This document shows, one piece after another, positions 1,812 through 3,381 of a DNA stretch of 3,381 bases; position 1 is the first letter of the stretch, and each line of letters starts with the position of its first letter. Below the pieces are notes generated by a model. That model was given only the letters and a program-made list of their open reading frames with translations, ran no database searches and was not told the DNA's origin. Position numbers and translations under genes: made by a program. Source of the DNA: a virus (taxonomy: Duplodnaviria; Heunggongvirae; Uroviricota; Caudoviricetes); the IMG/VR virus record IMGVR_UViG_2802429242_000011, positions 1-3,381 of that record. One strand, 5' to 3'.

Positions 1812-2383
1812 TGAACAACTTAATGATCGACCTTGAGACGATGGGGAAAAATAAGGATGCACCGATCGTTTCCATTGGCGCGGTGTTCTTCACTCCAGAA
1901 ACCGGAGACATCGGACAAGAATTCTATACGGTTGTCAGCCTGGACAGTGCTATGGAGCAAGGGGCCACACCTGACGGCGATACCATCCTGTGGTGGTTGA
2001 AACAAAGCCCTGAAGCACGAGCTGCAATCTGTATTGATGATACTTTGTCGATCAGCGATGCACTCTCTGAACTGAGCCATTTCATTAATCGGCACGCAGA
2101 CAATACGAAATATTTAAAAGTTTGGGGTAACGGGGCCACCTTCGACAACGTAATTTTACGCGGAGCTTATGAACGAGCGGGACAAATCTGCCCATGGGCG
2201 TACTGGAATGATCACGATGTACGCACGATCGTTACGCTTGGGCGTTCCATCGGATTCGACCCCAAAATGGACATGCCTTTCGATGGCGAACGGCACAACG
2301 CCTTGGCTGATGCTCGTCATCAGGCCAAATATGTTTCAGCTATCTGGCAGAAATTAATTCCTGCCACCAGCACAGAATTATGA
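1811..2383 (+). CDS. DEDDh-family (DnaQ-like) 3'-5' exonuclease, phage type (Rv2179c-like)
   Basis: All three Exo motifs are present in order: Exo I MIDLET (D-x-E), Exo II WGNGATFDNVIL, Exo III H-x4-D in ERHNALADARH. I prefer ATG 1811 (GGAGG at 1799-1803, 7-nt spacing) over the in-frame GTG 1808 used by the ORF track. Stop TGA at 2381-2383. Confidence 0.85.
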   Translation: MNNLMIDLETMGKNKDAPIVSIGAVFFTPETGDIGQEFYTVVSLDSAMEQGATPDGDTILWWLKQSPEARAAICIDDTLSISDALSELSHFINRHADNTKYLKVWGNGATFDNVILRGAYERAGQICPWAYWNDHDVRTIVTLGRSIGFDPKMDMPFDGERHNALADARHQAKYVSAIWQKLIPATSTEL

Positions 2384-2419
2384 TTTTCCCGGGTGCAGCC
2401 GGTTTTGATGGAGAAAATT

Positions 2420-2701
2420 ATGAACACCTTGTTTTTACTGATGGCTGAATTCAATACCCCAAACATTGAACTCTCAGCAGTTAGCCAAAAGTACTTTGGT
2501 ATGAGTCCAGCCACGGCAGAAGCAAAAGCAAACGCTTGTAAGTTGCCCATTCCAACATATCGCATCGGCACATCACAAAAAGCAAAACGTTGCATCAATA
2601 TTCAGGATCTTGCGGAATACATAGACAAAAGACGAGAAGAAGGACGTATCGAGTGGGAACAGGTCAGAACAGGCAAACAGAAGGGCAAAGAACATCACTA
2701 A
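2420..2701 (+). CDS. PrtN-family / excisionase-like small DNA-binding protein (93 aa from ATG 2420)
   Basis: N-terminus MNTLFLLMAEF followed by a ...SQKAKR..I.IQDLAEYIDKRR core resembles the pyocin-activator PrtN family, which is often annotated as excisionase in enterobacterial prophages. ATG 2420 has GGAG at 2410-2413 with 6-nt spacing. The ORF track's GTG at 2393 and the ATG at 2408 lack a Shine-Dalgarno. Stop TAA at 2699-2701 sits just before the terminator. Confidence 0.7.
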   Translation: MNTLFLLMAEFNTPNIELSAVSQKYFGMSPATAEAKANACKLPIPTYRIGTSQKAKRCINIQDLAEYIDKRREEGRIEWEQVRTGKQKGKEHH

Positions 2702-2703
2702 AG

Positions 2704-2730
2704 AAAAAACCCGCCTGAAGGCGGGTTTTC
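2704..2730. terminator. Bidirectional rho-independent terminator shared by the convergent + and - strand transcription units
   Basis: AAAAAA (2704-2709), stem CCCGCC (2710-2715), loop TGAA, stem GGCGGG (2720-2725), TTTTC (2726-2730). On the - strand the same hairpin is followed by TTTTTTCTT, so termination looks at least as strong for the - strand genes. Confidence 0.75.
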
Positions 2731-2748
2731 AAAAAGCACCAGCTATGA

Positions 2749-2922
2749 TCATGCTGCTTTGCGACGACGAAGCTTACCCTGCTGCTCTTTACCAGAGACA
2801 GTAGCGTGAGTGAACGCATTAGGAGCAGCCTTCATCATAACTTCAACAGCAGCACCCATACCTGCGAATGCTTTCATTGTGTCGAACTTAACCTGTGGCT
2901 TGGTTGCTTTTTGATCTTCCAT
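2749..2922 (-). CDS. Small hypothetical protein (57 aa), not in the supplied ORF track
   Basis: ATG is the reverse complement of 2920-2922 and TGA the reverse complement of 2749-2751. Hand translation gives MEDQKATKPQVKFDTMKAFAGMGAAVEVMMKAAPNAFTHATVSGKEQQGKLRRRKAA. GGAG sits 6 nt upstream (reverse complement of 2929-2932), an in-frame stop lies 5 codons upstream, and the terminator follows directly. Codon choice favours GCT/GGT/GTT/CGT. No family recognised. Confidence 0.55.
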   Translation of the reverse strand: MEDQKATKPQVKFDTMKAFAGMGAAVEVMMKAAPNAFTHATVSGKEQQGKLRRRKAA

Positions 2923-2961
2923 AGAAAACTCCAGAAGCTATACCGAAAAAATTCCTGTTGT

Positions 2962-3381
2962 TTACTCATCATCAATAGATGATACGCAATATTTATTTTT
3001 AAATTTAAGGTTCTTTGGCGTAACTTCATCAGATATATCAAAACCGTCCAGAATTCTATTGAATGTAGCTTCTGGCATATCATCATGAACAGAAATCTCA
3101 CCCGATCGCTGCTTTCTAACCATGTTATCCACTCGCCAAATTATAGCTTCAGCGTAAACAACATAACTTGGATGCTTGATAAAGCGATGATCACCAGAAT
3201 TCAAGACGCAAGACGGATCGTGGGGGACACCATCCTTGATACTAGAAATATTAACAACTAAAACACAATAACAATCGTTAACGGGGTAATAAACAGGATC
3301 ATTACAAATCACATGAAGATGATTGCATGGCCCAGTTGGGGCAAGCACAGTTCCTTTCCTGTATGGCTGATAATCCGTCAT
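2962..3381 (-). CDS. Hypothetical protein (139 aa), low-GC; candidate divergent MazF/PemK (Kid)-fold toxin-like protein
   Basis: ORF runs from an ATG at the very last three bases of the window (3379-3381) to TAA at 2962-2964. The start could instead lie further upstream, outside the window. GC is about 38% by my manual count, against roughly 50% for the phage genes. Ordered motif resemblance to MazF/Kid as I recall them: YQP...G..LAPTGP, CYCVLVVNISS, IIWRVD, MPEATFNRILDGF. By-eye only, unverified. Confidence 0.6.
   Translation of the reverse strand: MTDYQPYRKGTVLAPTGPCNHLHVICNDPVYYPVNDCYCVLVVNISSIKDGVPHDPSCVLNSGDHRFIKHPSYVVYAEAIIWRVDNMVRKQRSGEISVHDDMPEATFNRILDGFDISDEVTPKNLKFKNKYCVSSIDDE

Follow-up and report, generated by a model that had tools for sequence, protein, structure and literature searches.

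The small gene at positions 2749 to 2922 of the window, by which we mean the whole stretch of 3,381 nucleotides analysed, belongs to a family with a newly seen partner: in the other lineages examined, it normally lies directly downstream of a gene for an acidic protein of about 177 aa with a predicted GNAT fold (phrog_4350). The GNAT gene is absent from the window, its place being taken by an unrelated pair that encodes a Panacea protein and a 139-aa protein, and the 57-aa gene is very probably the orphaned half of a GNAT cassette. As to function, we consider it about an even bet that the small protein binds the GNAT effector so as to neutralise it or control it in some other way, and that the copy in the window is a stranded orphan.

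The 57-aa gene and its product

The window covers the early-left end of a lambdoid prophage. Its plus-strand genes are ea22-like, DUF551, Rv2179c-like 3'-5' exonuclease and PrtN-family excisionase-like genes, and the minus-strand features, namely the 139-aa ORF, the 57-aa ORF and a strong terminator, converge on the last of them. The whole minus-strand cassette sits reversed between the excisionase-like gene and the integrase, so that early-left read-through towards int would be antisense to it. The features at this end of the window are as follows.

2393..2701, plus strand: PrtN-family (excisionase-like) gene, convergent, ending at the same terminator as the 57-aa gene
2705..2730, both strands: intrinsic terminator common to the 57-aa gene and the convergent PrtN-family gene
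2733..2760, minus strand: hairpin across the stop codon of the 57-aa ORF, AAAGCAGCA ... TGGTGCTTT
2749..2922, minus strand: 57-aa coding sequence with ATG start, small basic protein of the phrog_2741 / WP_000390072.1 family
2751-2749, minus strand: stop codon TGA of the 57-aa ORF
2922-2920, minus strand: start codon ATG of the 57-aa ORF
2923..2935, minus strand: last 13 nt of the small gene's native upstream region, beyond which lies the Panacea/139-aa cassette
2929..2932, minus strand: Shine-Dalgarno GGAG with a 6-nt spacer (TTTTCT) to the ATG, kept in every context aligned
2938..2940, minus strand: in-frame TAG delimiting the start codon of the 57-aa ORF
2962..3381, minus strand: 139-aa ORF (phrog_19071), putative toxin of a Panacea-antitoxin pair, a neighbour and not the natural partner of the 57-aa gene
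3379-3381, minus strand: ATG of the 139-aa ORF, overlapping the Panacea stop codon just outside the window

The signals that an earlier note on this DNA had described, a GGAG at 6-nt spacing, a stop-delimited start and a terminator downstream, were each confirmed when the minus strand was read, with no ATG, GTG or TTG between the TAG (2940-2938) and the ATG. The terminator (2730-2705) has an 11-bp stem with six G-C pairs, followed by TTTTTTCTTT; the T-run is strong for the minus-strand cassette, and the PrtN-family gene is left with a weaker TTTTC tail. The 86 nt from the last ORF codons through the terminator had a folding energy of -28.8 kcal/mol (z = -3.5 against shuffles), and a terminator stands 3' of the small gene in nearly all homologous loci, with stem sequences that differ. 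Before the main terminator, the last codons AAA GCA GCA pair with TGGTGCTTT just past the stop codon, and the 3' arm of this hairpin with its flank (ATAGCTGGTGCTTTTTG) is identical in the E. coli, Enterobacter and Pseudescherichia loci, within surroundings that vary; the hairpin could be a tandem terminator or a stability element. The noted contrast in composition was also borne out: the GC content of the 57-aa ORF is 47.7%, against 38.3% in the 139-aa ORF upstream, and its Ala codons are mostly GCT or GCA, with GGT for Gly, GTT for Val and CGT for Arg. The gap between the two ORFs is 39 nt. Since scanning of both strands over 2300-3381 found no promoter-like site, and no terminator-like site on the minus strand between the ORFs, their co-transcription, as had been suggested, is plausible.

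That the 57-aa ORF is a real gene is close to certain. A word-indexed search of 5.8 billion proteins yielded 48 relatives, all from Enterobacterales and mostly of exactly 57 aa, and an exhaustive profile search of 1.8 billion representatives returned only 14 clusters, two of them chance matches. The true clusters are all stand-alone proteins of about 54–77 aa, most of them 54–61 aa, which argues against the ORF being the 3' remnant of a larger disrupted gene, an outcome that the earlier note had allowed for; long matches of 939 and 3,417 aa were repeated hits to the Ala-rich core only. In codon alignments of E. coli, Enterobacter, Pseudescherichia, Franconibacter and Hafnia sequences, pairwise dN/dS was 0.07–0.25. 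The sense frame of seven genus-level sequences contains no stops and has the lowest pN/pS, 0.21, compared with 3–33 stops in the other five frames and a pN/pS above 1 in four of the five; the fifth, an antisense frame that shares wobble positions, has a similar pN/pS and 11 stops in the seven sequences. Stops and pN/pS in homologues likewise rule out the plus-strand antisense ORFs at 2806-2982 and 2810-2914. A chance ORF, or a sequence conserved as an RNA or terminator region, could account for the partly open antisense frame and for the conserved hairpin that spans the stop codon; for the family this reading is refuted by the frame statistics above, by an open frame of 54–61 codons that is kept in homologues down to about 35% identity, and by the lack of any Rfam match at the gathering threshold in the window and four related loci.

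The gene had been described as unlisted, yet it is already annotated publicly as WP_000390072.1 in RefSeq E. coli genomes (hypothetical), as gp24 of phage mEp460 and as phrog_2741 (PHROGs, function unknown), the profile of which the protein matches over its full length (E 1.1e-34, residues 1-57 on profile positions 1-57 of 57). Approximately 562–565 of 5,426 complete E. coli genomes carry the small gene, O157:H7 and O111 strains among them. A full-text literature search with the protein sequence, accessions and PHROG identifiers found no mention of the protein. Pfam and NCBIfam (E <= 1) and PADLOC gave no match, and the only hit when PDB sequences were searched by profile was a beta-glucosidase, a chance match (E 1.2).

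The 57-aa protein is strongly basic (pI 10.2; 9.2–10.8 in the family). The AlphaFold2 model, of low confidence (pLDDT 66), predicts one helix (residues 15-32 plus 34-37) with disordered tails. Homologues share no invariant lysine and vary at the N-terminus, and 19 of 22 end in Ala-Ala. The window copy carries L29M, at a nearly invariant core position of the family. Motifs recognised by ClpX include the ssrA-like LAA and the MuA-like RRKKAI, and the conserved C-terminal Ala-Ala may, by analogy, make the 57-aa protein proteolytically unstable. The suggestion of a membrane-associated peptide did not hold up: no transmembrane segment was found, the best 19-residue Kyte-Doolittle window scoring 0.91 with K and E inside the central segment, and the hydrophobic moment is about 0.3. 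The same hydropathy speaks against a small membrane toxin of the type I or holin-like kind.

Conserved linkage to a GNAT-fold gene

In a megablast comparison, phage mEp460 shares with the window only the small gene and its terminator and not the 139-aa ORF; upstream of the small gene it carries gp23, of 177 aa. Homologues of gp23 with 61–66% identity precede the small gene in Enterobacter and Franconibacter. In Hafnia, the preceding gene encodes 179 aa and is a candidate counterpart of gp23. Each of the 56–58-aa homologues in Edwardsiella, Photorhabdus and Serratia lies downstream of a gene of the 177-aa type, and on two metagenome contigs, where the small proteins are only about 40% identical, a homologue of 172–181 aa is found upstream (hhalign probability 100%). 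When IMG/VR loci were retrieved with the 177-aa profile, the small gene was present downstream on the same strand in 80 of 80, and the arrangement held in eight further loci outside this set. The small gene is always 3' of the GNAT gene, at a distance of 93–196 nt. In the loci examined, every GNAT gene had the small gene with it, while some copies of the small gene had no GNAT gene.

At least three sites in prophages harbour the pair. In mEp460 it is inserted, in reverse orientation, between the excisionase and integrase genes; in several genera it separates the Q antiterminator from the holin; and in Photorhabdus it lies within a tail module. Its occurrence at several positions points to an autonomous, mobile two-gene cassette.

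In Hafnia prophages (L004 3150-4109, L005 3051-4109), where the site is that between Q antiterminator and holin, the pair is immediately preceded by a gene with a RelA_SpoT domain. This gene matches the PADLOC candidate defence family PDC-S33 (E 1e-112), and the locus thus looks like a small defence-type island. In Enterobacter prophages (L009 5301-5492), the terminator of the small gene is followed by a 63-aa gene and then by one for an N6/N4 methyltransferase. The 63-aa product weakly resembles the winged-helix model DprA_WH, at a score that does not reach the gathering cut-off (E 1.7e-4).

The 177-aa protein is phrog_4350, a PHROGs family without known function. Its AlphaFold2 model, built on a 22-sequence alignment, is confident (pLDDT 82.8, pTM 0.79), has TacT3 and AtaT among its structural matches, and gives the partner of the small protein in related loci a GNAT fold. 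Pfam, NCBIfam and PADLOC gave no match for this protein, and no Pfam acetyltransferase model was hit even at E <= 1. The family is strongly acidic (pI 4.3–4.9) and keeps a YYxSFGF motif, and the site of the acetyl-CoA loop reads HPLKGRM and not the canonical Q/RxxGxG/A. Weak PDB matches of the GNAT-like profile to engineered HIV gp41 constructs, made through a GG-linker-like stretch, were judged to be chance.

In native loci, the gap between the two genes (L003 4273-4468, minus strand; L009 4823-5000; and equivalents) opens with a conserved element, TAGACG-N16-18-TAGGAT, which was seen in 12 of the 14 diverse loci compared and in most cases overlaps with the stop codon of the GNAT gene. The first box varies as TAGACA or TGGACA, and the second as TAGTAT, TAGAAT, TACGAT or TAGCAT. 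The pattern is that of a sigma-70 promoter, and the element may act as one, though it has only 8 of 12 consensus positions and was not called by the scan tool. The leader of about 150 nt contains three conserved hairpins, TTACCT..AGGTAA, ACCAATCG..CGATTGGT and AAAGGTTAGC..GCTACCTTT, and a hairpin GAGAC..GTCTC adjoins the Shine-Dalgarno sequence. Only one of 24 pairs shows a compensatory change, and no Rfam family matches the leader; an RNA structure in it is plausible, and the palindromes could equally be protein-binding sites. The window copy has lost the promoter-like element and the leader, and the Shine-Dalgarno region alone survives.

Exchange of the GNAT cassette for a Panacea pair

We mapped the exchange by comparing phage Lys8385Vzw, which has the arrangement of the window, with mEp460, the flanks of the two being 97–98% identical. 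A block of 1,208 bp in Lys8385Vzw (upstream region, Panacea gene and 139-aa gene) stands in place of a block of 803 bp in mEp460 (upstream region, GNAT gene and leader). One junction falls 13 nt short of the ATG of the small gene, which in the window corresponds to about 2935/2936. As read from this alignment, a clean cassette exchange replaced the GNAT gene and its leader by the unrelated Panacea and 139-aa pair, leaving the small gene in the window as an orphan. The proposal that the 57-aa and 139-aa genes differ in origin is thereby upheld, as homology to mEp460 stops 13 nt 5' of the ATG, where the 1.2-kb cassette meets what had been a 0.8-kb segment. Among 99 loci with the small gene, 40 had the Panacea arrangement and 59 the GNAT arrangement; in the complete E. 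coli genomes (n = 5,426), the orphan arrangement with the Panacea pair occurred about 205 times and that with the GNAT gene 357 times.

The incoming pair has a partnership of its own. The 190-aa protein encoded just outside the window carries a SocA_Panacea domain (E 1.8e-18), and its gene (phrog_1281; L001 6729-7301) overlaps the start of the 139-aa gene by 4 nt (ATGA), which suggests translational coupling. The 139-aa gene, called at 128 aa in RefSeq, gave only sub-threshold chance matches in Pfam, NCBIfam and PADLOC. The pair is PanAT-like and is found across Gammaproteobacteria, sitting in the tail modules of Enterobacter and Proteus prophages; there, the 139-aa homologues always follow a Panacea gene and have no 57-aa gene behind them. 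The idea that the 57-aa protein neutralises the product of the upstream ORF therefore finds no support, since the conserved partner of the 139-aa ORF is the Panacea protein and the pair occurs without the 57-aa gene. A toxin-neutralising partner, as the earlier note had it, is still the best guess, for the absent GNAT-fold protein and not for the upstream 139-aa ORF.

Nor does the small protein look like an accessory third member of the Panacea/139-aa module, serving it as second antitoxin, chaperone or regulator. Some Panacea loci do have accessory third genes (PMC8832971), and only 39 nt without an intervening minus-strand terminator-like or promoter-like site separate the ORFs here. This reading is largely refuted by the Enterobacter and Proteus pairs that have no such gene downstream and by the GNAT-fold protein being the conserved partner of the small gene, and the junction 13 nt before the ATG indicates that the juxtaposition arose by recombination. 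The 57-aa protein has no Panacea (SocA_Panacea/DUF4065) domain and is not conserved with the pair elsewhere. Its upstream neighbours in the window do form a PanA-PanT-type pair, in the slot that the GNAT gene has in mEp460; RefSeq accessions of the pair and of the 57-aa protein were absent from the supplementary data of two Panacea/NetFlax papers.

The orphan copies differ from the native ones in polymorphism. E. coli-type haplotypes in the GNAT context showed four synonymous and no nonsynonymous polymorphisms, against three synonymous and five nonsynonymous ones in the Panacea context, a contrast (5:3 versus 0:4) too small for significance. Two of the nonsynonymous changes are L29M, carried by the window at a core position that hardly varies, and A56V, which alters the terminal Ala-Ala. 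Most frameshifted, truncated or internally deleted database variants start with MEDQ, the Panacea-context allele, and the Panacea context was confirmed for both of the two disrupted variants looked up. The frame was intact in 40 of 40 orphan copies sampled, which says little on selection because the swap is recent, given flanks that are 97–98% identical. These patterns suggest that orphan copies are under relaxed constraint and slowly decaying; with small numbers and a recent swap, they are suggestive only. The earlier note had named tolerance of frameshifts or stops in related prophages as evidence against the gene; such tolerance is seen to some extent in the orphan arrangement and not in the family as a whole.

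The surroundings of the exchanged cassette were also inspected in E. coli O177:H21 (L001 7301-9100). No integrase was found past the Panacea gene, and host pseudogenes, a tRNA-dihydrouridine synthase fragment and a frameshifted DUF2713 gene, follow directly. The early region is interrupted by an IS3 element, and this copy is a defective prophage. An RNA, the 193-nt, ArcA-regulated sRNA-17 of E. coli K1, has been reported in a mEp460-like prophage, in a study that left out 'hypothetical protein' genes before intergenic regions were defined (PMC7719688). We rejected it as an explanation, since the window lacks its primer-table sequence, which maps near yfdP at L001 581-599, some 5.5 kb away from the small gene.

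Proposed function and comparison with known systems

The native cassette reads, in order, the GNAT gene of about 177 aa, the 95–196-nt leader with its promoter-like element, the small gene and the terminator. In the working model, the small protein would bind the GNAT-fold effector and neutralise it or otherwise control it, much as antitoxins do in toxin-antitoxin or defence modules of reversed gene order, and its C-terminal Ala-Ala might keep it proteolytically unstable. In the window, the cassette exchange removed the GNAT gene and leader and brought in the Panacea and 139-aa toxin-like pair, so that the orphan small gene would be read through from the upstream operon, with a candidate Panacea promoter at L001 7456-7428, remain translatable and be stopped by its own terminator.

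Several observations lead us to a neutraliser: no GNAT gene was seen on its own, while the small gene persists where the GNAT gene is missing; the two proteins have complementary charges, and the small one is a single helix with disordered tails; in native loci the small gene appears to have a promoter of its own; what took the place of the cassette was a genuine pair of the toxin-antitoxin type; and the Hafnia pair adjoins the candidate defence gene PDC-S33. Taken by itself, an antitoxin-like function of the small protein falls slightly short of an even chance. A more far-reaching version, which we regard as doubtful, is that phrog_4350 and phrog_2741 form an undescribed reverse-order toxin-antitoxin or anti-phage defence cassette moving among Enterobacterales prophage hot spots, with the small protein as a degradable inhibitor in the substrate groove of the GNAT protein; the orphan could then still shield the lysogen from relatives that carry the GNAT gene, serving as an unpaired antidote (anti-addiction or cross-immunity).

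The small protein may instead be an autonomous 'moron' product that acts alone on the host or on other phages, for example as an exclusion or regulatory factor, the GNAT gene being a frequent neighbour and the window copy fully functional. The conserved promoter-like element, long leader and terminator of the native loci would suit such a gene, as would its codon choice, which resembles that of well-expressed genes, and its intact state in all 40 sampled orphan loci and presence as an orphan in about 205 complete E. coli genomes. We nevertheless regard it as unlikely, because the GNAT linkage is strict over three prophage positions and down to about 40% identity, which is hard to explain by two independent genes. 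The excess of nonsynonymous changes and frameshifts once the GNAT gene has gone also counts against it, and after so recent a swap the intact frames are uninformative on selection.

It is rather improbable that the small protein serves the GNAT enzyme as substrate, activator or specificity subunit, for instance as a basic peptide that becomes acetylated or brings the enzyme to a target. The homologues offer no evident conserved site for acetylation, given the missing invariant lysine and the variable N-terminus, and an enzyme that is never alone beside a small protein that sometimes is fits an antidote better than a cofactor. The roles might also be reversed, with the small protein as the toxin, the GNAT-fold protein as an antidote that sequesters or modifies it, and the orphan selected for silencing. 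Some toxins are likewise basic, helical and small, and orphan copies show more amino-acid changes and frameshifts; an expressed toxin would however kill the cell once a swap had removed the antidote, yet intact orphans with an intact Shine-Dalgarno sequence are found in about 205 genomes, and the protein has no membrane segment, so we consider this reading very unlikely.

Set beside known systems, the preferred neutraliser model would make the small gene and GNAT gene work most like a GNAT toxin-antitoxin pair, though one that fails the defining features of that family. GNAT toxins of the GNAT/DUF1778 type II systems (TacA-TacT, AtaR-AtaT, KacA-KacT and ItaR-ItaT) acetylate aminoacyl-tRNA, and the antitoxin blocks them by direct binding. 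The likeness lies in a mobile two-gene module of a GNAT-fold protein of about 175 aa and a small partner, in TacT3 and AtaT being among the structural matches of the phrog_4350 model, and in a phrog_4350 gene that is never found without the small gene. However, antitoxins of this family carry an RHH/DUF1778 domain, which was absent from the 57-aa protein in Pfam and NCBIfam at E <= 1 and in the profile search against the PDB; the chains searched presumably included AtaR, whose complexes with AtaT (6ajm and 6gtr) are PDB entries. Their antitoxin gene lies upstream and overlaps the toxin gene, whereas the small gene lies downstream after a 95–196-nt leader with its own promoter-like element, and in the window the GNAT gene is absent altogether. 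The phrog_4350 protein also differs in being acidic (pI about 4.5), in having no Pfam acetyltransferase match and in its non-canonical CoA loop, which together make aminoacyl-tRNA an unlikely substrate. Acidic and without the canonical acetyl-CoA loop, this GNAT-like protein stands apart from the GNAT toxins that acetylate tRNA, and it could be a harmless enzyme.

HigBA, MqsRA and HicAB are reverse-order type II modules with extra antitoxin promoters and antitoxins that have DNA-binding domains. The native cassette resembles them in having the effector gene first and the small putative neutraliser second, with a promoter-like element in or at the end of the first gene. There is no relationship in sequence or fold, the 57-aa protein being predicted as a single helix with disordered tails and their antitoxins being DNA-binding.

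The small gene is present in about one-tenth of complete E. coli genomes, and the GNAT link turns two 'hypothetical proteins' into a testable two-gene system, which may be a new type of toxin-antitoxin or defence system made of an unusual acidic acetyltransferase and a tiny antidote. Should the module prove inert, what is left is an annotated hypothetical gene whose evolution makes a neat story. Taken alone, the orphan copy is unremarkable; its family is a credible, widespread candidate module. The window records a clean swap between toxin-antitoxin-type cassettes at a prophage hot spot, and the early decay of the orphan gene can be followed in natural populations. The orphan is also comparable with orphan antitoxins and prophage morons, being a small gene with its own terminator, set against the direction of the phage operon, found at several hot spots and split from its cognate partner; prophage morons have a promoter of their own, whereas the orphan copy has lost both the promoter-like element and the leader.
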